Position numbers and translations under genes: made by a program
Assembly: GCA_017881075.1 (NCBI GenBank)
Contig: JADGRH010000003.1
Span: 64,682 to 128,681, forward strand
DNA length: 64,000 nt
Reading direction: 5' to 3'
Origin: Minisyncoccota bacterium
GTDB taxonomy: Bacteria > Patescibacteriota > Minisyncoccia > Phycocordibacterales > CAJBRS01
In this document: positions 1,584 to 30,464 of the stretch, piece by piece
Numbering within the stretch: the stretch's first letter is position 1
Layout of the letters: each line of letters starts with the position of its first letter
The notes under the pieces: model-generated
What the model saw: only the letters and a program-made list of their open reading frames with translations
Database searches by the model: none
What the model was told of the DNA's origin: nothing

Positions 1584-3242
1584 ATGACTCAAGCAGAAGC
1601 ACTGGATATCTTAAAGATGGGACACAATGTATTTATCACCGGCGCAGCTGGAAGTGGCAAAACTCACACTCTGCGTGCCTATATTGATTATTTGAACAAG
1701 AGCAATGCGAGCGTTGCCATTACCGCATCCACGGGAATTGCGGCTACGCACATTGGTGGTAGCACCATTCACTCATGGAGCGGCCTGGGAGTCCGCGATT
1801 CTCTTTCCGAGCAGGACTTAAGTGAAATGGAAGAGCGACAATATCTCTGGCGACGATATGATCAAGTAAGGATTTTAATAATTGATGAAGTTTCAATGCT
1901 CCATCATTTTCGATTTGATCTTTTGGATAAAATTTGCCGATTTTTCAAAAGAAACGATGCCCCCTTCGGGGGCATGCAAATAGTGCTTTGCGGTGACTTC
2001 TTCCAACTGCCGCCAGTCACCATAATGGGGGAGCCGGAGGCAAGCTTCATTCATAAATCAGATGTTTGGGAAGAGATGAATTTGAAGATCTGCTATCTCT
2101 CCGAACAGCATCGCCAAAATATTGAAGACGAATATTTTAAAATCCTAAATGAGATCCGCGGGAATGATGTCGGCACGGATACATACGAACTCCTACAATC
2201 CCGTCTTAACCAAGAATCCGAATCAAAAATTCCGCCGACTCGTCTCTACACTCACAACATTGATGTTGATGCCGTGAATAACCGCGAGCTCGGAAAGATT
2301 GCGGGGGAGGCAAAAATTTACGCCATGTCTTCCAAAGGAAGGGCCGCTATAGTGGAGACTTTGAAAAAGAGTTGTCTTTCACCGGAGAAACTTTCTCTTA
2401 AAATTGGAGCCAAAGTAATGTTCGTTAAAAATAATTTTGAGAAACATTATGTTAATGGAACATTGGGGATAGTTGTGGCTTATGATTCAGCCGGTTATCC
2501 TATTGTGGAAACTCTTTCTGGAAAGAGGATACTGGCCACACCGGAGAGCTGGATGATAGAAGAAGAGGGCAAGATTAAAGCCGAGATCAATCAAGTGCCG
2601 CTCCGGCTCGCCTGGGCTATTACTGTGCATAAAAGCCAAGGAATGAGCCTTGATGCGGCAGAAATGGACCTATCAAAATCTTTCATTAAAGGGATGGGAT
2701 ATGTGGCTCTTTCGCGAGTGCGTAGTTTAAAAGGCTTGAAGCTACTCGGTATCAATCAAATGGCTCTGCGAGTAGATGAAGGTGTTTTTGAATACGATCA
2801 AACTCTCCGATCACTTTCAAAACAAAGCCAAAGTGAGTTAAAGAAGATGACCGCAAGCGAAATGAAAAAAGAGCAGGGAGAATTTCTGGCGAAAGTTGCT
2901 GGCTCCAAAAAAATTAAGGAAGAAAAAATAGCCACTCATCACAAAACCAAAAATCTTTTGCTCCAGAAGCTCTCTTTGGAAGAAATGGCAGAGGCGCGTG
3001 GGATGACCACCGAGACTATTGTCAGTCATATTGAGAAATTACTAGAGGAAGATCCGTCGTTTGATGTTCAGTATCTTTTCAATGCTAATTTTACTGATGA
3101 GCGTTTTCAGAAAATTGAAAAAGCTTTTGAAAAATCTTTAGCCAAGAATGGCGACTATCGTTTGGCGCCGGTGCGAGGTCTGCTTGGGCCCGATTTTGAT
3201 TATTTGGAACTGCGCATAGCGAGGTTGTTTTTGGGAAAGTAG
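1584..3242 (+). CDS. PIF1/RecD-family ATP-dependent DNA helicase
   Basis: Walker A GAAGSGKT, LIIDEVSM (motif II), FFQLPPV, AITVHKSQG, C-terminal HhH-like tail; typical PIF1-like SF1B motif order. Confidence 0.8.
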   Translation: MTQAEALDILKMGHNVFITGAAGSGKTHTLRAYIDYLNKSNASVAITASTGIAATHIGGSTIHSWSGLGVRDSLSEQDLSEMEERQYLWRRYDQVRILIIDEVSMLHHFRFDLLDKICRFFKRNDAPFGGMQIVLCGDFFQLPPVTIMGEPEASFIHKSDVWEEMNLKICYLSEQHRQNIEDEYFKILNEIRGNDVGTDTYELLQSRLNQESESKIPPTRLYTHNIDVDAVNNRELGKIAGEAKIYAMSSKGRAAIVETLKKSCLSPEKLSLKIGAKVMFVKNNFEKHYVNGTLGIVVAYDSAGYPIVETLSGKRILATPESWMIEEEGKIKAEINQVPLRLAWAITVHKSQGMSLDAAEMDLSKSFIKGMGYVALSRVRSLKGLKLLGINQMALRVDEGVFEYDQTLRSLSKQSQSELKKMTASEMKKEQGEFLAKVAGSKKIKEEKIATHHKTKNLLLQKLSLEEMAEARGMTTETIVSHIEKLLEEDPSFDVQYLFNANFTDERFQKIEKAFEKSLAKNGDYRLAPVRGLLGPDFDYLELRIARLFLGK

Positions 3243-7707: not shown

Positions 7708-7738
7708 AATCCGGCCAGAGAATTCACGGGCCGGATTA
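7708..7738. terminator. conserved hairpin AATCCGGCC-N12-GGCCGGATTA (family copy 2)
   Basis: same arms as 6317 and 9474; between convergent genes. Confidence 0.65.
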
Positions 7739-8089
7739 CGAAAAACTTCTGAGTCCTAACAGCATGATGATGGTATTTACCAAATCGTCAGGATGAGCCT
7801 CATGGGTGCATCGAAAATAATTCAACATAATCTGTCGGATACCGGGACTTTTGTCCACAACCACAATGGGTCCATTGCAATGAGGAGGAAGACTCTTCAG
7901 AAGTGCTCCGGTGTTGAACGTTTTTGACCCAACACAAGTTTCGACGGCTACAAGGTCATAACGATCAGATTCCTCAATCGCGAATCTAACGTCGTAGGCG
8001 TAGCTTGCGCTGACGTCATATTCCTCCAACCTCCTTTGCCACTCGGTCGCCAGGTCATTGTCATTAGTCACAATTAAGATATTCTTCAT
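7736..8089 (-). CDS. receiver-fold paralog with degenerate phospho-acceptor site (ILIVTNDND .. DLVAVETCVG)
   Basis: 117 aa; ~65% identical to 9503..9856; the Asp of the DLVxxD pocket is replaced by Glu and the beta4 Thr is absent. Confidence 0.55.
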   Translation of the reverse strand: MKNILIVTNDNDLATEWQRRLEEYDVSASYAYDVRFAIEESDRYDLVAVETCVGSKTFNTGALLKSLPPHCNGPIVVVDKSPGIRQIMLNYFRCTHEAHPDDLVNTIIMLLGLRSFS

Positions 8090-8219: not shown

Positions 8220-9350
8220 TTACTCTCTTAGCATCAGCGAGACCGTGTCGGGGAACGTTGTTGTGTAATCCCCGAAGATCTGCATGCCGAAACTTTTCGG
8301 CGTCACTTTGTCCCAAGTGATCTTCTCGTTGGCACCGGCGCCGGAATATGATCCGACACTCATTGGGGATGTGTGGTACTCGACGAAACCTCCCCATGGT
8401 CTGATGAGCTTGTCCTGTAGACGATGTGATTCGTCTGCGAGGAAGTCATGCTTGAGGTGGGGGACAACGCAAATGGCGAAGTCTCCAGCAATGCCGCCAC
8501 CAAGCTGGACGAAAGCCAGCGGAGTTTTGCGGGTCACGTCCATGTAGAATTCCGCGAGCGCATGCATGTACGAAATCCCCGGAAGGACCACGTTCATGTC
8601 GATCGGCGCCTCGATCTTGTAATTTTTCAAGAACCAATGGTCGCCCTTGTAGCACGCCTGAGCAAAAATATTGCCCATCGTAGAATCTTCGAATCCAGGA
8701 ACGAAGAGCGGAATGTCGAGTTTTGCAGCTTTGCGAAGCCAACATTCTTCCGCATTGGCCGTCGGATCTTTTCTGATCAGATCGTGCTTGAACAGGTGAT
8801 AGAAATACTGATGCCAGAGTTTCCGCTCCTTATTTACTCCGGCGATCCTCCATTGCTTCATGAGCTTGGGCAGGATGACTCTGACCGATTCGTCTTCCGG
8901 CAGGATCGTGTCTGTGATTCGGCGGAAACGAAGGCGGCGAAGCTCCTCTTCCTGTTTGGGCGTCAAGGATTGATAGTTGGGAATGTAGACATAATACTGA
9001 TTTGCTGAGAATCGGTAGGCGCTTTCTTCCATGTTCGCGCCGGTAACTGACATTCCGGCGATGTATCCGGCGTCCATCAGTCTGGTGATGGGTACACCGA
9101 GCTGGAATGATGATCCGGCTCCGGCCATTGATAAGAATATCTTGCCGCCCTCTTCGCAGAAATCTCGAAGCCAAAGGCCGGCATCGACAGTTCTTCCTCC
9201 GTTGCAATGGCGCTTGTTCTGGACCAGTGAATTTGAGACGGGGCTGTCTGCGCTGGGGGTATAACGTCGTTCTCCCACAGTGATCATCTTGCGAAGCCCA
9301 GGACTGAGCTGAGCCATTTTTTGTTTAAGGGACATGATTTGATTTGACAT
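8220..9350 (-). CDS. deoxyhypusine synthase-like protein (DHS/homospermidine synthase family)
   Basis: Blocks matching eukaryotic/archaeal DHS: IPLFVPGFEDSTMGNIF ~ IPVFSPALTDGSLGDMIF, LGGGIAGDF ~ LGGGVVKHH, YSGAGANEKITWDKV ~ DSGARPDEAVSWGKI, C-terminal F.D..TTFP ~ YADASLVFP. Confidence 0.7.
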   Translation of the reverse strand: MSNQIMSLKQKMAQLSPGLRKMITVGERRYTPSADSPVSNSLVQNKRHCNGGRTVDAGLWLRDFCEEGGKIFLSMAGAGSSFQLGVPITRLMDAGYIAGMSVTGANMEESAYRFSANQYYVYIPNYQSLTPKQEEELRRLRFRRITDTILPEDESVRVILPKLMKQWRIAGVNKERKLWHQYFYHLFKHDLIRKDPTANAEECWLRKAAKLDIPLFVPGFEDSTMGNIFAQACYKGDHWFLKNYKIEAPIDMNVVLPGISYMHALAEFYMDVTRKTPLAFVQLGGGIAGDFAICVVPHLKHDFLADESHRLQDKLIRPWGGFVEYHTSPMSVGSYSGAGANEKITWDKVTPKSFGMQIFGDYTTTFPDTVSLMLRE

Positions 9351-9473: not shown

Positions 9474-9505
9474 AAATCCGGCCTGTGAATCGGTCGGCCG
9501 GATTA
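9474..9505. terminator. conserved hairpin AATCCGGCC-N12-GGCCGGATTA (family copy 3)
   Basis: same arms; lies directly 3' of receiver paralog 9503..9856. Confidence 0.65.
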
Positions 9506-9856
9506 AGAATAGCGCTTCAATTCAAGAAGAGTGACGATGAGAGACACCAACAAGTCCGGATGCGCGCCATGTGTGCATCCAAAATCTCTAATCATTGCCT
9601 GACGGATCTCCGAACTCTCGTCCACGATCACTATTGGTCCATTAGAATGGGCAGGGAGACTCTTGAGGAGTGGGCCCGTATTGAATGTCTTGGAGCCAAC
9701 GCAGGTCTCTACCGCCACGAGGTCATAACGGTCTTGATTGGAAACCGCATAACTTACGTCATAGGCGTAGCTTGCGTTGACTGCGTATTCATCCAGTCTA
9801 TTCCGCCAATCGGACAGATGGTCATTGTTAGTAGACACAATTAGGATAAACTTCAT
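9503..9856 (-). CDS. receiver-fold paralog with degenerate phospho-acceptor site
   Basis: MKFILIVSTNND .. YDLVAVETCVGSKTFNTG; 117 aa; paralog of 7736..8089. Confidence 0.55.
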   Translation of the reverse strand: MKFILIVSTNNDHLSDWRNRLDEYAVNASYAYDVSYAVSNQDRYDLVAVETCVGSKTFNTGPLLKSLPAHSNGPIVIVDESSEIRQAMIRDFGCTHGAHPDLLVSLIVTLLELKRYS

Positions 9857-10390: not shown

Positions 10391-10750
10391 ATGATTTTTA
10401 ATATGACTAAGATTGAGGATCTGATTACAAGAGTGACTGCATTTAGAGATGATAGAGACTGGAAACAGTTCCATAATCCCAAAGATAATGCTATCGGATT
10501 AGTTCTGGAAGCCTCGGAGGTTTTAGAGCTATTCCAGTGGAAAAATAAAGAAGAAATTGACAAGTATATAAAATCACATAGCGAAAATATTTCTGACGAA
10601 CTAGCGGATGTTATGTATTGGGTTTTATTAATGTCACATGACTTGAATATTGATATCGGAAAGGCTATAGAAAAGAAACTTAAGAAAACAGAAGAAAAAT
10701 ACCCTATAGAAAAATCCAAAGGTAATCATAAGAAGTACACAGAACTTTAA
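10391..10750 (+). CDS. MazG-like nucleotide pyrophosphohydrolase
   Basis: DWKQFHNPKDNAIGLVLEASEVLELFQW followed by ELADVMYW .. L: MazG/NTP-PPase EExxE-type helix pair; 119 aa. Confidence 0.7.
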   Translation: MIFNMTKIEDLITRVTAFRDDRDWKQFHNPKDNAIGLVLEASEVLELFQWKNKEEIDKYIKSHSENISDELADVMYWVLLMSHDLNIDIGKAIEKKLKKTEEKYPIEKSKGNHKKYTEL

Positions 10751-10754
10751 TCTT

Positions 10755-12608
10755 ATGATTCTATATAAAAATAATCTAAAGGATTTTAAAATTCACGTTG
10801 ATACTAATCAGATCGGGGATTTAATCGAGAAATCTTTTAGAGAAAAATTAGGGCACAAAGTTGCTCCAAATGAAAAAAGGTCATGGACTAATTCTATGTC
10901 GTTTATGGAGAAAATAGTCAGAAGGGCTGATCTTTCGGATACTTGCGGAGTTATGTTGGAATATATTATTCCAAACACTTCTAACAGAATCGACTTTTTA
11001 ATTTCCGGGGAAGACGAGAAAGGGAACAAGAATTTTATAATTATTGAATTGAAACAATGGGAAACATCAGAATCTACTGATAGAGATGGTGTAGTAAGGA
11101 CTTTTGTGGGAGGAGGAGTACGCGAAACTACGCACCCATCTTACCAGGCCCATTCCTATAAATTGTTTTTAAGTGACTACAATGAAAATATTGATTCTGG
11201 CATTCTTTCACCATACGCTTGCGCGTATCTGCATAATTATAAAGAGCGGAGTCCGGAGCCTCTAAAGGCTCAAATATATGAATCTGTTATTAAGGTAGCG
11301 CCAGTTTATTTTAAGGACGATTATGAAAAATTGGAGCAGTTTTTGCATAATTATGTTAGGTTCGGAAAAGGAGAAGAAATCTTGTATCAAATTGAAGCCG
11401 GCAGAATAAAACCTAGCAAAAAACTTATTGAGCATATTCAAAAAATGTATGAAGGAAACCAGGAATTTATATTACTGGATGAGCAAAAGGTGGCATATGA
11501 GACAGCTCGATCTGTAGCAAAGAAAGTTAAAGAAAAATCTGTCGTAATTATAAAAGGTGGTCCAGGGACGGGTAAATCTGTAATCTCAATGAATTTATTG
11601 GGAAGCCTATTAAAGGATGAACTTAATGTAAACTTTATTGCCCCTAACTCTGCCTTTAGAGAAGTAATGATTCATAGATTAGCAAGGAAGGAGACTAAAT
11701 TAAGGTTAAAAAACTTGTTTAAAGGCTCTGCTGGTTTTGTAAATGCCAAGAAAGACACATTTGATACTTTAATAGTGGATGAAGCACATAGATTAAAGAA
11801 AAAAGGTGCTTATCAATACAAGGGGATAAATCAGATAGAAGATATCGTTAATTCTGCTAGAACGTCTATCTTTTTTGTCGATGATAATCAGATGATTCGT
11901 CCAGACGATATAGGTTCAGTTCAGGAGATTAAAAGAGTGGCTGATAAAAATAAGGCAAGAATTTATGAAATAGAATTAGTCGCCCAATTTAGGTGTGCTG
12001 GGGCAGAAGGTTATCTTAATTGGCTCGACAATACATTACAGATTAAAGAGACAGCGAATTTTGATGGATGGGAGCAAAAAGATTTTGAGTTTAAGATTTT
12101 TAATGATCCTAACGACTTAAGGAAAATGATAAAAGAAAAGCATGATAAAGGATTTAATGCTCGAATTCTTGCTGGCTATGCTTGGAAGTGGACAAGTGTA
12201 GGGGAGGGCAATAAAAGTGGAGAAGTTGAAGATGTCTTAATCCCCGAATTCGATTTCAAAATGCCGTGGAATGCTCGACAAATTGGAACAACTTGGGCGG
12301 TTGATCCAAAAGGTATTGATCAGGCAGGATGCATTCATACTTCACAAGGTCTGGAATTTGACTACGTTGGAGTTTTGGTAGGCAATGATTTACGTTTTGA
12401 TTCCAAAAAACTTGACTACCATGCTCACTGGGTATCCTACAAAGATACGACGGGGAAAAAAGGGCTGAAAAATAACCCGGAAGAATTAACTAAATTAGTA
12501 AAAAATATCTACAAGGTTCTTATGAGCAGGGGTATGAAGGGATGCTATGTTTATTTTACTGACAAAGAAATGGAGAGATATTTTAAATCACGCTTAGGTA
12601 TCAAATAA
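10755..12608 (+). CDS. nuclease-helicase: N-terminal PD-(D/E)xK-like fold + P-loop SF1-like NTPase + DUF2075-type C-terminal region (Schlafen-helicase / Nhi-like architecture)
   Basis: N-term RIDFLI .. IIELKQWE (D .. ExK); Walker A VVIIKGGPGTGKSVIS; Walker B/DEAH LIVDEAHRL; 4-nt gap after the MazG-like gene (operon). Confidence 0.65.
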   Translation: MILYKNNLKDFKIHVDTNQIGDLIEKSFREKLGHKVAPNEKRSWTNSMSFMEKIVRRADLSDTCGVMLEYIIPNTSNRIDFLISGEDEKGNKNFIIIELKQWETSESTDRDGVVRTFVGGGVRETTHPSYQAHSYKLFLSDYNENIDSGILSPYACAYLHNYKERSPEPLKAQIYESVIKVAPVYFKDDYEKLEQFLHNYVRFGKGEEILYQIEAGRIKPSKKLIEHIQKMYEGNQEFILLDEQKVAYETARSVAKKVKEKSVVIIKGGPGTGKSVISMNLLGSLLKDELNVNFIAPNSAFREVMIHRLARKETKLRLKNLFKGSAGFVNAKKDTFDTLIVDEAHRLKKKGAYQYKGINQIEDIVNSARTSIFFVDDNQMIRPDDIGSVQEIKRVADKNKARIYEIELVAQFRCAGAEGYLNWLDNTLQIKETANFDGWEQKDFEFKIFNDPNDLRKMIKEKHDKGFNARILAGYAWKWTSVGEGNKSGEVEDVLIPEFDFKMPWNARQIGTTWAVDPKGIDQAGCIHTSQGLEFDYVGVLVGNDLRFDSKKLDYHAHWVSYKDTTGKKGLKNNPEELTKLVKNIYKVLMSRGMKGCYVYFTDKEMERYFKSRLGIK

Positions 12609-12820: not shown

Positions 12821-12910
12821 TCCTATTTATGCACGGCCTTTATCTAAAAAATGGCCAATGGACCAAAGAGAGAGCAGTAAAAATATCTGCGTATCATTTC
12901 ACTTATGGAT

Positions 12911-12932
12911 AATCCGGCCTGCTCTGCCACGC
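12911..12932. repeat. left arm of 22-bp terminal inverted repeat AATCCGGCCTGCTCTGCCACGC
   Basis: revcomp matches 13320..13342 at 21/22; shares the AATCCGGCC core with the three cassette terminators. Confidence 0.6.
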
Positions 12933-13319
12933 TTGTATTGCCCTCTACTTTTTTTATGGCATACTTAAAAAAGAAATCCATGACAGACCTAATCTGATCT
13001 TTAAATATAAACCCTATTTTGCAGGTATGAAGAGACAATAAAGCATCGATTAAAAAATAATATGACCAATAAATATAGCAATAATCTTGTTACATAGAAT
13101 TTCAAATTTACTTAAAATATGGCTCTAATCAAGAACTAATTAAGATATGCACAGCTTATCCACTGGTAAGCTATTTACAAAACTGCTAGATTATGATACA
13201 TTAAGAGAGGAATATTTCTTTTTCCCCTCTTGCTGATTATAATAAGCTTTTCTTTCATAATAGGAAAAATAATATTAGCTAAATACTTGACTCCAAAAAT
13301 TTTGGAGAGTATTATGCAA

Positions 13320-13342
13320 GCGCGGCAGAGCAGGCCGGATTA
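13320..13342. repeat. right arm of the 22-bp inverted repeat GCGCGGCAGAGCAGGCCGGATTA
   Basis: see 12911..12932; arms flank ~390 bp of AT-rich non-coding DNA. Confidence 0.6.
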
Positions 13343-13359
13343 TCAATAAATTAAATTAT

Positions 13360-13761
13360 ATGACCAACGACAAATCTTTTTTGGAGGATCTCTATACTGA
13401 CAGTGGGGGATTCGACCGCGAACGGGTAGTGCGGGTGCTCCAAACCATACTAACCATTCAGCGGGGCGACCATAAAGTCTTCTTTAAAAAAGAGGCAACA
13501 CTAGAAGCTGCGGACAAAATTTTGGCTTATGCGTTAGTAAAAAAGCTTTTAAAGACAGAGGGGGTAACTGAAACGAGTAGTGTCTCGGGAAAGGAACTGA
13601 AGAAGCAAACGGGTGTAAAGTCCGGGACGGTCGATTTTACAATTAAAAAACTTAAAGAGGAAGATGGTCTGCTTGTTGGCAGCGGTAGCAATTATGAAAT
13701 ACCAGCACACAAAGTTGAAGACATCTTAGAGCGTCTTGAAAAATGCGCTTCCAAAAAATAA
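13360..13761 (+). CDS. hypothetical protein with C-terminal winged-HTH-like motif
   Basis: SVSGKELKKQTGVKSGTVDFTIKKLKEEDGLLVG resembles a wHTH recognition helix/wing; first gene of a tight 4-gene operon. Confidence 0.4.
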   Translation: MTNDKSFLEDLYTDSGGFDRERVVRVLQTILTIQRGDHKVFFKKEATLEAADKILAYALVKKLLKTEGVTETSSVSGKELKKQTGVKSGTVDFTIKKLKEEDGLLVGSGSNYEIPAHKVEDILERLEKCASKK

Positions 13762-14206
13762 ATCTATGGAAAATAACATAAAAAAAATACTCGGAGAAAT
13801 ACTCACATCCATAAAGAGCCTTGAAAAACGAGTTACTCTCATAGAAAGCAAGACACCGAGCATGAGTACACCATCACATGATCTTCCCATTGCCTCGAAG
13901 AAGATGTCGATAAAGGAGTTCCTAATTGATCGCTCTCCAGCAAATGGAGTACAAACAACTCTCGCGGTCGCATATTATCTAGAAAAATATGACAAGATCT
14001 CGCCATTTAATGCCAGTGACATAGAGAAAGCATTTCGTTCCGCTAAGGAACCAGTGCCCAACAATATCAATGATAAAGCAAATATGTGTATTAAAAATGG
14101 TCATTTAATGGAAGGAGAGGATAAGAAAGACAATATGAAAGCGTGGGTAGTCACTCGAAGCGGAGAACAATACGTTCAGGAAAAATTTGATCGTTATAGT
14201 CATTAA
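13736..14206 (+). CDS. hypothetical protein; C-terminal domain shared with the next gene
   Basis: 26-nt overlap with the upstream gene; C-terminal pattern (hydrophobic stretch .. SPFNASD .. K.G .. KAWVVTRSGEQY) parallels 14236..14784. Confidence 0.4.
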   Translation: MKNALPKNKSMENNIKKILGEILTSIKSLEKRVTLIESKTPSMSTPSHDLPIASKKMSIKEFLIDRSPANGVQTTLAVAYYLEKYDKISPFNASDIEKAFRSAKEPVPNNINDKANMCIKNGHLMEGEDKKDNMKAWVVTRSGEQYVQEKFDRYSH

Positions 14207-14235
14207 AAATAAAATTATTCACTAATATAAATATT

Positions 14236-14784
14236 ATGTCTGAAGCAGAAATAGTAGAAATCGTAGGGAAAATTGTTACTGCACTCACTCCTCTTTCTCA
14301 TGAGGAACGACAGAGGGCGGTGCAAGCGTCTTTAAATGTATTTGGTGAATCCATGCTCAGGTCTACACAAAGAAAAGACGAACTCAATGAAATTCCCTCT
14401 GCATTTAGTGAACGCGCGCGGATATGGATTAAACAGAACGAGCTTTCTTTGGAAAATTTAGAACAAATTTTTCATATTACTGATACTGGAGCAGAATTGA
14501 TTATTCAAGAAGTGCCGGGAGGAAAGGATAACAAACCCAGGGTGCTAAATGTGTATGTTCTTTCTGGCGTAGCTTCCCTACTCACCTCAGAAAATTCTAA
14601 TTTCGACGACAAAGTTGCAAGAACCATATGTGAATCATTTGGATGTTACGATCCAACAAATCACACTAAATACCTAAAGAAAAGTAAATTCTTTACAGGA
14701 TCCAAAAAAACAGGATGGACCTTGACTGCTCAGGGTTTAAAACATGCAGCCATGTTAGTTAGAGAACTGAGTAAGCCCCAATAG
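14236..14784 (+). CDS. hypothetical protein; C-terminal domain paralogous to the previous gene
   Basis: C-terminal .. VYVLSGVASLL .. NFDDKVARTI .. TGWTLTAQGLKHAA aligns with the preceding protein's tail. Confidence 0.4.
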   Translation: MSEAEIVEIVGKIVTALTPLSHEERQRAVQASLNVFGESMLRSTQRKDELNEIPSAFSERARIWIKQNELSLENLEQIFHITDTGAELIIQEVPGGKDNKPRVLNVYVLSGVASLLTSENSNFDDKVARTICESFGCYDPTNHTKYLKKSKFFTGSKKTGWTLTAQGLKHAAMLVRELSKPQ

Positions 14785-14786
14785 AT

Positions 14787-15527
14787 ATGATTTTCACATT
14801 TAAAAATATTCCGATCAATCTTTCTGAAAAATTGGTTGAGGAATACTTGGAAATAAAGAAACGCCATTCAATGAGTGATTGGGGCCCAAGTCAATTAAAA
14901 GGCGGTAGATTTGCAGAAGCTATGTTACGCATTTTCCAACATTTGCTCGGTATTTCTATTACACCATTTGGGACCAACATTCCAAACAAAGACCGTATTT
15001 TAAATGCTGTAAAAATTCACCCGTCATTGGATGACCACATTCGTCAAAAAGTAGCACCTCTTATAAGACTTCTTCTAGATTTTCGTAATAATCGAGATGT
15101 AGCACACCTCGGAGGATTCAATGCAAATAGCATGGATACTCTTTTTGTGATGACAACAGCGACATGGATTTTGTGTGAACTGATCCGTGTTTATGGAGGG
15201 CAAAGTATGGACACCGCTCAAAAACTAGTAGACTCACTTTCCGTTAAAGAGTATCCAGTGCTAATGGAGTTCGAAGGAGAGCTCTTTATTACTCGACACA
15301 ATCTCAACGCAGAACAAGAAGTGCTAATATTTTTGTATAAAAATCGTAAAGCAGGCTACAATTTTTTGTCTTCAAAGACAAAGGACAGCAATTCTTCACG
15401 TTTTAAGAAAATTTTAGAGAAAATGGTTGCGGTAAAGTTCATTGGCAGCAAGGCAAATCAGTACTTTATCATGCCTCGTGGAATCGAGCGTGTAGAAAAA
15501 GAACGCTTATTGATCTATTCAAACTAG
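14787..15527 (+). CDS. hypothetical protein with HEPN-like R-x6-H motif (RNNRDVAH), candidate RNase
   Basis: 3-nt gap from the previous gene; motif LLLDFRNNRDVAHLGGF fits the HEPN Rx4-6H signature within a predicted helical context; inference only. Confidence 0.35.
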   Translation: MIFTFKNIPINLSEKLVEEYLEIKKRHSMSDWGPSQLKGGRFAEAMLRIFQHLLGISITPFGTNIPNKDRILNAVKIHPSLDDHIRQKVAPLIRLLLDFRNNRDVAHLGGFNANSMDTLFVMTTATWILCELIRVYGGQSMDTAQKLVDSLSVKEYPVLMEFEGELFITRHNLNAEQEVLIFLYKNRKAGYNFLSSKTKDSNSSRFKKILEKMVAVKFIGSKANQYFIMPRGIERVEKERLLIYSN

Positions 15528-15612
15528 GAATCAACAAGGCCAAGGCTGTTTTTTATATCTATTTCATCTTTTCTTCATAAATTTTTCATATTTAAAATGT
15601 TATGATGTGTGA

Positions 15613-16083
15613 ATGCAAAAGGACTTTACCTTTCAATTAATAAAGGGAAAAATCAGCGAAACTATATTTGATCAGATGTTTCGAGAAGCAGGGGAGTTTA
15701 CAGTTATCCCCTTTGGTTATGAAGCTTTAGTCCCGGAAATTGCTCAGCTTGCTCGTTCATTAGAACGCAAGGAAGTTCTGGACTCAATTAGGAATAGTCC
15801 TGATTTTGCACTGGTCTCTCATAGTCAGAAAAAGGTATTTCTAGTTGAAGTGAAATATAGGTCGCATTTACACGAAGATGACGTGTTAAATATTGCTCAG
15901 ATGGTTCACGACAGATGGAAACTAGCGTGGTTGTTCATTGCTACTCCGGAAGGATTCTATTTTGATAGTTGCTCGGATGTCTTAAATACTAAGACCATTA
16001 ATAAACTTAAACCAACATGGATCAATGCCGAACTCCAGGAAAAGTATTTAGCAGTAATGAATAAGTTTCAAGTTAACCATTAA
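15613..16083 (+). CDS. PD-(D/E)xK restriction-endonuclease-fold protein
   Basis: E(A)L .. PDFALVSH .. VFLVEVKYR = canonical E .. PD .. (D/E)xK arrangement; 156 aa. Confidence 0.5.
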   Translation: MQKDFTFQLIKGKISETIFDQMFREAGEFTVIPFGYEALVPEIAQLARSLERKEVLDSIRNSPDFALVSHSQKKVFLVEVKYRSHLHEDDVLNIAQMVHDRWKLAWLFIATPEGFYFDSCSDVLNTKTINKLKPTWINAELQEKYLAVMNKFQVNH

Positions 16084-16102: not shown

Positions 16103-16861
16103 ATGTTCTCAGATCCAATCATTGAAAATTTAAAGTATTACGTTTATATACTTGTTGATCCGAGCAATAATAAGCCTTTTTATATTGGAAAAGGAATAGG
16201 AAATAGGGTTTTTTCCCATCTAAAAAATGAAATTGAAGACGAGTCTAAGATTTCATTAAAACAAGCGCTTATTAAAAATATTCAGGATCAAGGGAAAGAT
16301 GTTGAGATATACATAGTACGACACGGTTTAAATGAGAAGGAGGCATTTGAGATTGAGGCGACACTTATTGATTTTATCCAACTTAGAAATCTTACTAATG
16401 AAATAGTAGAGCACGACTATAAGGAAGAAATACCAGCTAAAAATCTGGCTAATATTGTTTTAGGACATCATGCGGGAGAAAGGGGGCTTATGACGCTAAA
16501 TGAAATACTCCAGTTGTATGGTGCAGAAGAGGCTAATATTACCGACCCAGTAATAATAATTAATATAAATCGAAAATATAAACGGGGCATGAGTCCGAAT
16601 GAAATATATGAAGCAACTCGAGCATCTTGGGTCATAAGCAAAGATAGGTCACAGAAAGCTAAATTTGTTCTCGCATCATTTCGTGGAATAGTAAAAGAAG
16701 TTTTCTATGTTAATCATTGGCAACAATCTAAGAATTCAAACCGCTTAGAATTTGAAGGAGGTGTTGCTCAGTTAGAGATTGCTGAAAAATATAGAAACAA
16801 AGCTATAACTAATTATTTGAAGACGGGGGCACAAAACCCAATTAGATACGTAAATTGTTAG
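16103..16861 (+). CDS. GIY-YIG nuclease domain protein with ~150-aa C-terminal extension
   Basis: YYVYILVDPSNNKPFYIGKGIGNRVFSH .. E (GIY/YIG with Arg, His and Glu); 20-nt gap after the PD-(D/E)xK gene. Confidence 0.6.
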   Translation: MFSDPIIENLKYYVYILVDPSNNKPFYIGKGIGNRVFSHLKNEIEDESKISLKQALIKNIQDQGKDVEIYIVRHGLNEKEAFEIEATLIDFIQLRNLTNEIVEHDYKEEIPAKNLANIVLGHHAGERGLMTLNEILQLYGAEEANITDPVIIININRKYKRGMSPNEIYEATRASWVISKDRSQKAKFVLASFRGIVKEVFYVNHWQQSKNSNRLEFEGGVAQLEIAEKYRNKAITNYLKTGAQNPIRYVNC

Positions 16862-17157: not shown

Positions 17158-17661
17158 GTGGAAAATGAGTTTAAGAATCTTGCTTTTATAGATGGACAGA
17201 ATCTGTATATGGGTACGTCAAAGCGAGAGATCGATCCGTGGGAAATTAACCTTACCCGATTCTGTGTATATCTGGATGAAAAATACAATGTCGGTAATGC
17301 CTATTATTTTTTAGGATATGTGCAGGAGGCAAATCAAGAACTCTACGAAGAAATACAAAAGGCTGGTTTCTTGCTAGTATTTCGAGAACATAATCCAGCG
17401 ATGATTGGGAAGAAAAAAGGAAATGTGGATTCAGATATTGTCTTTCATGTCATGAAAAATCTATACAAGAAAGAGAATTTTAAAAAGATAATCCTTGTTT
17501 CTGGAGATGGTGACTATAAATTACTGGTTGATTTTTTGATAGCAGAGAACCGATTCGAGAAGATATTGTTTCCGAATAGAGAATTTGCGTCTTCTTTGTA
17601 CAAGAAACTCGGTTCGGAATATTTTGATTACTTAGAAAATATAAAGACATATATCACATAA
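17158..17661 (+). CDS. NYN-domain (PIN-like, LabA/YacP-like) ribonuclease
   Basis: AFIDGQNLY .. D .. VSGDGDY signature of NYN domains; terminator hairpin follows at about 17671..17708. Confidence 0.7.
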   Translation: MENEFKNLAFIDGQNLYMGTSKREIDPWEINLTRFCVYLDEKYNVGNAYYFLGYVQEANQELYEEIQKAGFLLVFREHNPAMIGKKKGNVDSDIVFHVMKNLYKKENFKKIILVSGDGDYKLLVDFLIAENRFEKILFPNREFASSLYKKLGSEYFDYLENIKTYIT

Positions 17662-30009: not shown

Positions 30010-30061
30010 GAGTCATTAAACGGACTTGTCTTATTTAAAAAATTTTATATAATAGACTCTT

Positions 30062-30453
30062 CTTGAATCGGGTAATTGCTCCGCCACCTAAAAAGGGCGG
30101 GGAGGAAAGTCCGAACACAGGCCCTTCACCAAAATTGGTGAAGGGAAGAGTAGCGGGTAATACCCGTCTGGAGCAATCCACGAGGTGCGAACAGAGACGA
30201 ACCGGTTAAGTCCGGGTGAAACGGCTAAATCCTTACTTCTGTGCAAGGCCGCGCGCCAATTTTGTCCGCTAGAGGCGGTTACAAAATTGAGCGTCCCGAG
30301 ATTTTCGAGGGATTGATCCTTCGACAAGCTCAGGGCACTCAATCTTGCAGCCACCTGCAGTGGGCAAGATTGGTGAGTGCCGCTTGACTCCGAGAGTAAT
30401 CGAGGAGCTAGATAAATAATTATCGATAACAGAATTCGGCTTATAGATTCAAG
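30062..30453 (+). ncRNA. rnpB: RNase P RNA (bacterial type A)
   Basis: P4 GGAGGAAAGTCCG.ACACAGG and 3' ACAGAATTCGGCTTAT conserved blocks; P1 pairing CTTGAATC/GATTCAAG; the minus-strand ORF 30088..30504 is spurious. Confidence 0.85.
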
Positions 30454-30464
30454 AAGACAAATCA

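Follow-up and report, generated by a model that had tools for sequence, protein, structure and literature searches.

A widespread gene pair encoding a MazG-type pyrophosphatase and a PD-(D/E)xK nuclease-helicase in a Minisyncoccota bacterium, a candidate immunity module

A pair of adjacent genes encoding a MazG-like nucleoside triphosphate (NTP) pyrophosphatase and a nuclease-helicase with a DUF2075 core was identified in a stretch of 64,000 nucleotides (nt), here called the window, from a Minisyncoccota bacterium (GenBank assembly GCA_017881075.1, contig JADGRH010000003.1, positions 64,682 to 128,681, forward strand). Both products have clear domain identities and intact catalytic residues, the pair is conserved in distant phyla with correlated divergence of its two members, and its neighbourhoods are of the defence type. 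On balance, the pair probably constitutes a mobile DNA-targeting immunity module in which the MazG partner edits the deoxynucleoside triphosphate (dNTP) pool. An anti-phage hypothesis for a MazG and DUF2075 pair was already formulated in 2022 and is unproven. The breadth and tightness of the pairing are added by the present analysis, as are rare methylase and phosphorylase fusions and a parallel with modification-dependent enzymes that also have NTP pyrophosphatase partners. Two further features seen in the alignments are new, namely a substrate pocket that appears to be DCTPP1-like except for one histidine and a putative self-cleaving, LexA/UmuD-like tail in many orthologues.

Layout and conservation of the gene pair

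The two genes are located on the same strand as follows.
10391-10750, + strand: gene for a MazG-like all-alpha NTP pyrophosphatase of the DCTPP1 type, 119 amino acids (aa); PF12643 and PF03819; best solved structure DCTPP1
10755-12608, + strand: nuclease-helicase gene, a single chain of 617 aa with a PD-(D/E)xK N-terminal domain followed by a DUF2075/PF09848 core resembling superfamily 1B (SF1B) helicases

The stop codon of the MazG gene (10748-10750) is separated from the ATG of the nuclease-helicase gene (10755) by a 4-nt spacer (TAA tctt ATG), as reported in an earlier reading of this DNA (the original prediction). A second ATG is present in the MazG gene at 10403 and the orthologue proteins begin at about residue 5, so the true length of the MazG product may be 115 and not 119 aa. 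Co-transcription of the two genes is suggested by their common strand, by the 4-nt gap, by the ATGA-type overlap seen in most orthologues and by the lack of an intergenic terminator-like site. No + strand terminator-like site was found between them in a promoter/terminator scan that performed no better than on shuffled sequence, and the operon structure therefore rests on spacing and synteny. Upstream of about 10.4 kb the GC content is 0.43-0.50; it falls to 0.33-0.38 between there and about 18 kb and then stands at about 0.44. The drop coincides exactly with the start of the pair, which thus forms the edge of an AT-rich island; the GC profile agrees with the original prediction on this point. 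No tRNA gene was detected at the edges of the island in a scan of the window (the nearest is at 570-659), and no convincing direct repeats flanking the island were found.

The large protein belongs to an extensive family. At least 7996 homologues with E <= 1e-5 were obtained from 8000 candidates scored, and 698 clusters at 50% identity match the protein with E <= 1e-30. Eighty genome loci containing full-length relatives of the large protein (42-74% identical) were fetched, and the position of MazG was determined by an iterative search with the window MazG protein. Seventy-seven of these loci were informative. The positions of the MazG gene were as follows.
47 of 80 loci: directly upstream of the helicase gene, usually with a 4-nt overlap
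7 of 80 loci: directly downstream of the helicase gene
3 of 80 loci: within 800 nt of the helicase gene
2 of 80 loci: separated from the helicase gene by an inserted module of a DUF3427 enzyme and NUDIX
18 of 80 loci: MazG absent
3 of 80 loci: locus truncated

The MazG gene abuts the helicase gene on the same strand in 54 of the 77 informative loci, so the lack of conserved co-occurrence that would have counted against the original prediction was not observed. No third conserved gene was found by clustering of all neighbours; MazG aside, no cluster of neighbours extends to more than 7 of the 80 loci. According to the record titles, the loci derive from Saccharibacteria, Parcubacteria, Omnitrophica, Paenibacillus, Bacillus, Clostridia, Bacteroidales, Chitinophagaceae, Halomonas, Burkholderiales, Desulfovibrio, Chloroflexota, Sphaerochaeta and a Methanobacteriaceae archaeon. 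The groups covered are Patescibacteria, Bacillota, Bacteroidota, Pseudomonadota, Chloroflexota, Spirochaetota, Desulfobacterota and Methanobacteriaceae, and the closest relatives of the window protein occur in genomes of the candidate phyla radiation (CPR).

The pairwise divergence of MazG is correlated with that of the helicase (Mantel r = 0.48; 0 of 2000 permutations as high). One plasmid each of Priestia and the haloarchaeon Halalkalicoccus carries the pair, as does a Microcystis phage record. Together with its relatives, the pair is represented in 110 plasmid records, among them megaplasmids of Bacillus, Priestia, Hymenobacter, Methanosphaera and Halalkalicoccus. An NTP pyrophosphatase gene is also present in operon with a distant DUF2075 subfamily (24-26% identical), and the MazG partner is retained where the DUF2075 helicase bears a different N-terminal domain. 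By their order and divergence, the two genes are passed on together in different domains of life, on chromosomes and on plasmids alike. A mainly phage-borne gene was also considered and rejected, as 4 of 50,697 phage records match and just two close full-length relatives were found in IMG/VR.

The two proteins and their relatives

The 119-aa protein matches the Pfam families PF12643 (MazG-like; 4.7e-18, 65.7 bits against a cut-off of 27) and PF03819 (MazG; 2.3e-06), and its ExxE...ExxD metal-binding motif is intact, so the MazG fold originally assigned to it is upheld. The best solved-structure match is the mammalian dCTP pyrophosphatase 1 (DCTPP1, or RS21-C6) at 5e-17, which covers residues 8-119 and includes the C-terminal KYT-L tail. 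The acidic residues of the active site were located by alignment to this enzyme.
10508-10609, + strand: metal-binding/catalytic acidic residues E40, E43 and E46 (EASEVLE), E70 and D73 (DELADV) of MazG

These five residues align with E63, E66, E69, E95 and D98 of DCTPP1, respectively, and the base-pocket residues W24, F27, H28 and W50, situated close by, align with W47, F50, H51 and W73. The substrate-pocket residues of DCTPP1 were taken from a recent structural paper (PMC13291643) and mapped onto 61 partners, comprising 59 DUF2075-linked MazG genes and 2 sequences published by Millman et al. In DCTPP1 numbering, the Trp47/Trp73 sandwich, Phe41, Phe50, His51, Tyr129 and the metal ligands are nearly invariant among these partners and common to DCTPP1 and the window MazG, and an aromatic residue is kept at the Tyr102 position. 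The window MazG differs from DCTPP1 in lacking the eukaryotic N- and C-terminal extensions and in having an aliphatic residue in place of the selectivity residue His38, which is V in the window MazG and I/L/V/M in all 61 partners. Judged from these alignments, the window MazG is almost certainly an active enzyme and appears to have a DCTPP1-like pyrimidine pocket. No regulatory domain was seen in the 119-aa protein with Pfam. In the literature, DCTPP1-type enzymes are described as house-cleaning enzymes, and DCTPP1 as an enzyme that removes C5-modified dCTP and prevents its misincorporation.

A dedication of this MazG subfamily to the DUF2075 partner was rejected. A DUF2075 gene adjoins 31 of the 80 closest metagenomic MazG relatives, and the remaining close relatives often lie in housekeeping contexts, next to TGT, MraW and CCA-adding enzyme genes. 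Because many of its relatives lie among housekeeping genes, the MazG enzyme would evidently be a house-cleaning enzyme that has been recruited into the module.

Another family of about 320-470 aa, without a Pfam match, overlaps the stop codon of a closely related MazG gene by 4 nt, and one of its members weakly resembles a model of type II restriction enzymes. By gene order, this family appears to be a second, uncharacterised partner of the same MazG subfamily. Its members are located in five loci.
L110:5336-6451: member of the MazG-linked family
L145:5339-6745: member of the MazG-linked family
L098:1817-2809: member of the MazG-linked family
L088:401-1372: member of the MazG-linked family
L094:541-1059: member of the MazG-linked family

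The 617-aa protein matches PF09848 at 4.5e-92 (309.5 bits against a cut-off of 24), with residues 261-603 covering positions 1-354 of the 354 in the profile. This family is the former DUF2075 and is now named 'Schlafen group 3 DNA/RNA helicase domain' (SLFN-g3_helicase) in Pfam. The nuclease domain and the principal motifs are positioned as follows.
10755-11459, + strand: PD-(D/E)xK (restriction-endonuclease-like) N-terminal domain, residues about 1-235
10959-10961, + strand: nuclease catalytic residue E69
10992-10994, + strand: nuclease catalytic residue D80
11046-11048, + strand: nuclease catalytic residue E98
11052-11054, + strand: nuclease catalytic residue K100
11556-11579, + strand: Walker A / helicase motif I GGPGTGKS (G268-S275), read from the sequence and (nearly) invariant in two alignments
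11778-11789, + strand: Walker B / helicase motif II DEAH (D342-H345); D342, E343 and H345 invariant, A344 at least 90% conserved
12336-12362, + strand: C-terminal helicase motif HTSQGLEFD (H528-D536) of the RecD/Dda type, (nearly) invariant

Across 61 homologues, E69, D80, E98 and K100 are invariant, and the Walker A, DEAH and HTSQGLEFD motifs show little or no variation. The last of these, which we take to be SF1 motif V/VI, was the search pattern of a genome scan. A sequence search of solved structures with the large-protein profile gave spurious P-loop matches alone (SRP54/Ffh and IGHMBP2, E about 0.002-0.005), and a fold search was therefore needed. The AlphaFold2 model of the protein has a mean confidence score (pLDDT) of 87.6. 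Its top matches in the PDB by Foldseek are RecD, RecD2, Dna2, Dda, Upf1, nsp13 and IGHMBP2, with E from 1e-10 to 1e-7 for RecD, RecD2, Dna2, Dda and Upf1, and with SLFN11 at rank 24. The model places the 617-aa protein among the predicted SF1B-type helicases / P-loop translocases, and the N-terminal domain folds as a PD-(D/E)xK nuclease and is a member of that superfamily. The NCBIfam RecD and RecD2 scores are far below the cut-offs. The original prediction had described an N-terminal restriction-endonuclease-like domain followed by a P-loop/DUF2075 region, and these calls were right according to Pfam, the motifs and the fold search. The motifs that it quoted (RIDFLI...IIIELKQWE, GGPGTGKS and VDEAHRL) are all present in the translation, PF09848 and the MazG families were both matched above their cut-offs, and the PD-(D/E)xK domain sets the protein apart from housekeeping RecD/TraA-like helicases that have no N-terminal nuclease.

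Some orthologues carry additional domains. A C-terminal Peptidase_S24 (LexA/UmuD-like) domain is present in 25 of 79 orthologues, 23 of which also have MazG.
S24-tailed examples: proteins P0009, P0021, P0022, P0047, P0049, P0055, P0063 and others; L004:6001-8274

When this domain is aligned to UmuD and LexA of E. coli, its catalytic residues Ser and Lys are retained and a Cys-Gly is found at the position of the self-cleavage site. The tail, which the window 617-aa protein lacks, suggests control by filaments of RecA on single-stranded DNA (ssDNA), with RecA-stimulated self-cleavage, in about a third of the orthologues. Three rare fusions of nuclease-helicase relatives were also found: P0267 (1153 aa) contains an N-terminal N6 DNA methylase, P0254 (1092 aa) an N-terminal PNP_UDP_1 nucleoside phosphorylase, and P0180 (1068 aa) a C-terminal Pif1 helicase.

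The combination of a PD-(D/E)xK nuclease and a DUF2075 SF1-type helicase in a single chain is shared with Nhi from Staphylococcus epidermidis (SERP2475; Bari et al.) and with AbiO. Unlike the window pair, Nhi is a single gene without a MazG partner. The PADLOC models of Nhi and AbiO (PDLC02372 and PDLC02350) match the window protein with 54.6 and 55.2 bits (about 1e-15) over window residues 236-500 and model positions 179-409 of 470, and the nuclease domain is unmatched. Membership of the Nhi/AbiO family was rejected because the match is confined to the helicase region and no model is matched over its full length. Nhi-like from Bacillus cereus FSL H8-0482 (SG141), which was validated by Millman et al. 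(2022), is likewise a single gene of the same architecture. BLASTP against the first 399 residues of its published sequence gave a best segment with E = 0.008 at the P-loop and an N-terminal segment with E = 0.24; in the absence of meaningful sequence similarity, orthology with Nhi-like was rejected. The Nhi-like label given to the window protein in the original prediction therefore suits its architecture but not its sequence. The best PADLOC match is the computational single-gene candidate PDC-S41 (7.6e-21, 72 bits), which is also partial (residues 3-315 against model positions 5-291 of 657). As this match spans the N-terminal half, the N-terminal nuclease region is related. PADLOC thus returned partial matches to PDC-S41, AbiO and Nhi but no full-length match to Nhi or AbiO. 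To judge from these comparisons, the window pair forms a sequence family of its own among the known nuclease-helicases (Nhi, AbiO, Nhi-like), in which the MazG partner is close to obligatory.

The PF09848 helicase domain is also common to the window protein and the group III Schlafen proteins (SLFN11, SLFN5 and SLFN13), but the N-terminal RNase core of the latter is absent and a PD-(D/E)xK domain is in its place. Bacterial Schlafen defence proteins described in papers of 2025-2026 are defined by the RNase core (AlbA_2-type, Ex4ExK motif). Membership of the Schlafen family was rejected, as there is no Pfam match to the Schlafen core and the fold is that of PD-(D/E)xK; the Schlafen-helicase label is thus appropriate for the helicase domain but not for the nuclease. 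The closest folds for the motor domain are those of Dna2, RecD/RecD2 and Dda (SF1B), at a sequence identity of 11-13%. Dna2 contains a PD-(D/E)xK nuclease and an SF1B helicase in one chain, as does the window protein, whereas the domain details differ and the known roles of these enzymes are in replication and repair.

Proposed function and competing explanations

The same pair is listed in Table S2 of Millman et al. (2022; bioRxiv 10.1101/2022.05.11.491447) as a candidate system named 'Pyrophosphatase', composed of 'pyrophosphatase' and 'DUF2075' genes. In that study, 45 candidates derived from defence-island statistics were examined in E. coli and B. subtilis with 26 phages, and 21 were validated. 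The construct SG192 (Bacillus firmus LK28) is marked 'x' under 'observed defense', and SG193 (B. thuringiensis Lr3/2) is marked 'Cloning failed'. Like the window, these entries have a MazG-like gene beside a DUF2075 protein with an RxD...ELKQW nuclease motif. The window large protein is 40% identical to the SG192 DUF2075 protein (E 2e-103, over all 399 listed residues), and the MazG proteins of the window and SG193 share 52% identity. SG193 has its two genes in the opposite order to the window, and its DUF2075 protein is just 26% identical. The published entry is a table row in which no mechanism is given, and its source organisms differ from that of the window. No later literature describing the pair was found; searches on DUF2075 with MazG and on PDC-S41 returned nothing, a search on MazG with anti-phage and helicase returned nothing relevant, and the pair is not mentioned in recent papers on bacterial Schlafen proteins and serine recombinases.

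The genomic context is of the defence type. A known-type defence gene, similar to PD-T4-3, is located 3.5 kb downstream of the nuclease-helicase gene in the same AT-rich island and is followed by an NYN-domain gene.
16103-16861, + strand: gene for a GIY-YIG protein of 252 aa (PADLOC PD-T4-3, 1e-53; Pfam LEM-3_GIY-YIG, 1.2e-15)
17158-17661, + strand: NYN-domain (PF01936) gene, after the PD-T4-3-like gene at the far end of the AT-rich island

Neighbours that recur in the related loci include pairs of McrB-like and DUF2357/PDDEXK_7 genes, PLD-helicase-DUF3427 enzymes, Dcm methylases, type I restriction-modification (R-M) systems, AbiEi/AbiEii, Fic/RhuM, Mrr and HNH. These gene neighbourhoods support a defence-island context for the pair in the window and in the related loci.

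In two related loci (L033:817-7959 and L046:2136-7962), the genes for MazG, a PLD-helicase-DUF3427 enzyme, NUDIX and the DUF2075 nuclease-helicase form a tight same-strand array, and the array in L033 holds an additional, second MazG-type gene beside NUDIX. A DUF3427 enzyme with its own NUDIX or MazG-type partner is also present in L019, L026 and L009. The occurrence of DUF2075 genes next to DUF3427-type modification-dependent enzymes has been noted earlier (PMC6765204). These arrangements suggest that modification-dependent nucleases are generally accompanied by NTP pyrophosphatases.

The large protein is probably a DNA-targeting, ATP-driven nuclease-translocase, because its PD-(D/E)xK and SF1B combination is that of Nhi and Dna2 and because a relative is fused to a DNA methylase. 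The analogy to Nhi, Nhi-like/AbiO, Dna2 and RecD-type enzymes suggests that the protein would load onto foreign DNA on its entry or during its replication and would cut it as it moves along. The substrates of the MazG enzyme would be non-canonical dNTPs, most likely of the cytosine type and C5-modified, which it would split into deoxynucleoside monophosphates and pyrophosphate. Modified nucleotides, whether of phage synthesis or recovered from phage DNA after its degradation, would in this way be kept out of DNA. As a result, the host DNA would stay a non-substrate for the nuclease, or the phage would be denied a protective base, or both. The foreign DNA destroyed by the nuclease-helicase may be base-modified.

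Editing of the dNTP pool by MazG, rather than draining, is proposed on four grounds. The same MazG subfamily also occurs as a stand-alone housekeeping enzyme; DCTPP1 removes C5-modified dCTP, as noted above, and its Trp sandwich, His51 and metal ligands are conserved; each DUF3427 modification-dependent enzyme of these loci comes with a NUDIX or MazG partner of its own; and phages escape the architecturally similar Nhi-like by loss of a DNA methylase, which is a lead towards modification-dependent targeting. A specific link of the pair to DNA modification is a tentative proposal and is rather to be doubted. Similarly unlikely, as a complete scheme, is a restriction-like system in which DNA cutting and dNTP-pool editing would be two halves of one mechanism, with a self-cleavage switch responding to RecA on ssDNA in the LexA/UmuD-tailed third of the orthologues. 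Such a scheme would also account for the NUDIX and MazG partners that accompany DUF3427 enzymes in the related loci.

Several observations weigh against an immunity module with a pool-editing partner. The sole published test of an orthologous pair (SG192) was negative. No modification-reader domain was detected in the large protein by Pfam or in the fold of the N-terminal domain, and the selectivity residue His38 of DCTPP1 is not conserved, which makes the predicted substrate of MazG uncertain. The nuclease-helicase occurs without MazG in 18 of the 77 informative loci and hence can stand alone, and the MazG subfamily is not partner-specific, as shown by its metagenomic relatives. The large protein is 59-79% identical among the best 120 homologues, which is unusually conserved for an arms-race gene, and its close relatives are rare in phage collections. 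The original prediction of a two-gene anti-phage module thus agrees with the conservation of the pair and with its defence context, but the proposal is not new and SG192 showed no defence.

An involvement of the pair in SOS-linked DNA repair or damage tolerance, not in immunity, is unlikely. The large protein would then process stalled forks or DNA damage as SLFN11 and Dna2 do, MazG would clean damaged dNTPs, and the S24 tail would tie the pair to RecA. Such a role would accommodate the 25 of 79 orthologues with a Peptidase_S24 domain (with its Ser/Lys dyad and its Cys-Gly aligned to the UmuD/LexA cleavage sites), the house-cleaning function ascribed to DCTPP1-type enzymes, the frequent location of the closest MazG relatives among housekeeping genes, the high conservation of the large protein and the negative phage-defence test of SG192. 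However, the patchy distribution, with a near-identical architecture in distant phyla, archaea and plasmids, fits horizontal transfer. The window copy lies in an AT-rich island with a PD-T4-3-like gene, the neighbours in general are overwhelmingly restriction and defence genes and not repair genes, and the fusions to N6 DNA methylase and PNP_UDP domains suit conflict systems better.

Abortive infection by nucleotide depletion is quite unlikely. In this case the nuclease-helicase would be the sensor and MazG the effector, draining dCTP or other dNTPs as defensive dCTP deaminases and dGTPases do. Nucleotide-depletion defence is established, the active site of MazG is intact with a pocket that appears to be of the dCTP type, and one nuclease-helicase relative is fused to a PNP_UDP nucleoside phosphorylase domain; the failed cloning of SG193 could be explained by toxicity, which is weak evidence. 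The invariant catalytic residues of the nuclease, however, argue that the large protein is itself an effector and not just a sensor, and the occurrence of the same MazG subfamily alone among housekeeping genes argues for a harmless constitutive enzyme. The loci that have the nuclease-helicase without MazG (18 of 77), and the 119-aa protein in which Pfam revealed no regulatory domain, also speak against depletion.

The target of the module may instead be plasmids, conjugative elements or transforming DNA, or the module may serve in competition between mobile elements, with the mechanism as proposed above for the immunity module; this is very unlikely, although it would explain the negative phage screen. 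The 110 plasmid records with the pair or its relatives, megaplasmids included, and the lack of defence by SG192 against 26 phages are consistent with such a target, and an SF1B helicase with a nuclease would suit incoming ssDNA or DNA ends. The defence-island neighbours (McrBC-like, PD-T4-3 and AbiE), however, are mostly anti-phage, and a single negative construct is weak evidence; Millman et al. themselves caution that unverified candidates may defend under other conditions (bioRxiv 10.1101/2022.05.11.491447). Finally, a housekeeping MazG lying by chance beside a functionally unlinked, stand-alone nuclease-helicase is close to refuted: MazG relatives are often stand-alone and some nuclease-helicase genes have no MazG, but in 54 of 77 loci across phyla the two genes abut on the same strand, usually with a 4-nt overlap and among otherwise variable neighbours, their divergence is correlated, and pairings of this kind are also seen with distant DUF2075 subfamilies and in archaea.

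If the immunity module is active, it would represent a very widespread family of nuclease-helicase immunity systems: its 50%-identity clusters number in the hundreds, they span bacteria, archaea and plasmids, and the family is abundant in the small CPR genomes. Its near-obligatory partner would be a nucleotide-sanitising enzyme homologous to human DCTPP1, quality control of the dNTP pool would be linked to the restriction of foreign DNA, and a function would be found for the relatives that the Schlafen helicase domain has in prokaryotes. In many orthologues, the putative RecA-type self-cleaving tail could act as an activation switch. At present, the pair stands as a well-documented lead whose candidate system did not pass the one screen to which it was put; the choice of phages, modified bases or a non-phage target are candidate reasons for the failure of SG192.

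Neighbouring genes and other features of the window

Four consecutive open reading frames (ORFs) of 133, 156, 182 and 246 aa, without a match in Pfam, NCBIfam or PADLOC, are located within 13360-16083 (+ strand), and a 156-aa ORF after these four has a weak TnsA-like PD-(D/E)xK match (0.0012). This group, which lies between the nuclease-helicase and PD-T4-3-like genes, may form a system that has not been described before.

The gap of 750 nt that follows the nuclease-helicase gene contains an inverted repeat of 68 nt (12892-12959 and 13293-13360), the arms of which are 76% complementary and 333 nt apart. The left arm lies within a 64-aa ORF on the minus strand. The right arm, in which a promoter-like TTGACT-17-TATTAT is present, has its end at the ATG of the following ORF. 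The repeat region (12892-13360) might be an invertible or duplicated promoter region.

On a Priestia aryabhattai plasmid (NZ_CP083270.1; L083:3548-6866), an annotated operon contains the genes for DUF3578 (a DNA reader resembling the N-terminal part of McrB), a nucleotide pyrophosphohydrolase and DUF2075. MutT and a restriction endonuclease are encoded upstream of this operon and a type I R-M system downstream.

Upstream of the pair, a Pif1-family helicase with an HTH_40 domain is encoded at 1584-3242 (+ strand), followed by a TrmB-type regulator. Two clearly paralogous ORFs of 117 aa (7736-8089 and 9503-9856, both on the - strand), with no recorded Pfam family, flank a deoxyhypusine-synthase-like gene (8220-9350, - strand). 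A bacterial class A RNase P RNA is located at 30060-30459 (+ strand) with 113 bits, just over the gathering score of 100, and seven tRNA genes are found elsewhere in the window. The RNase P RNA and the tRNA genes confirm that the window is part of a bacterial chromosome.

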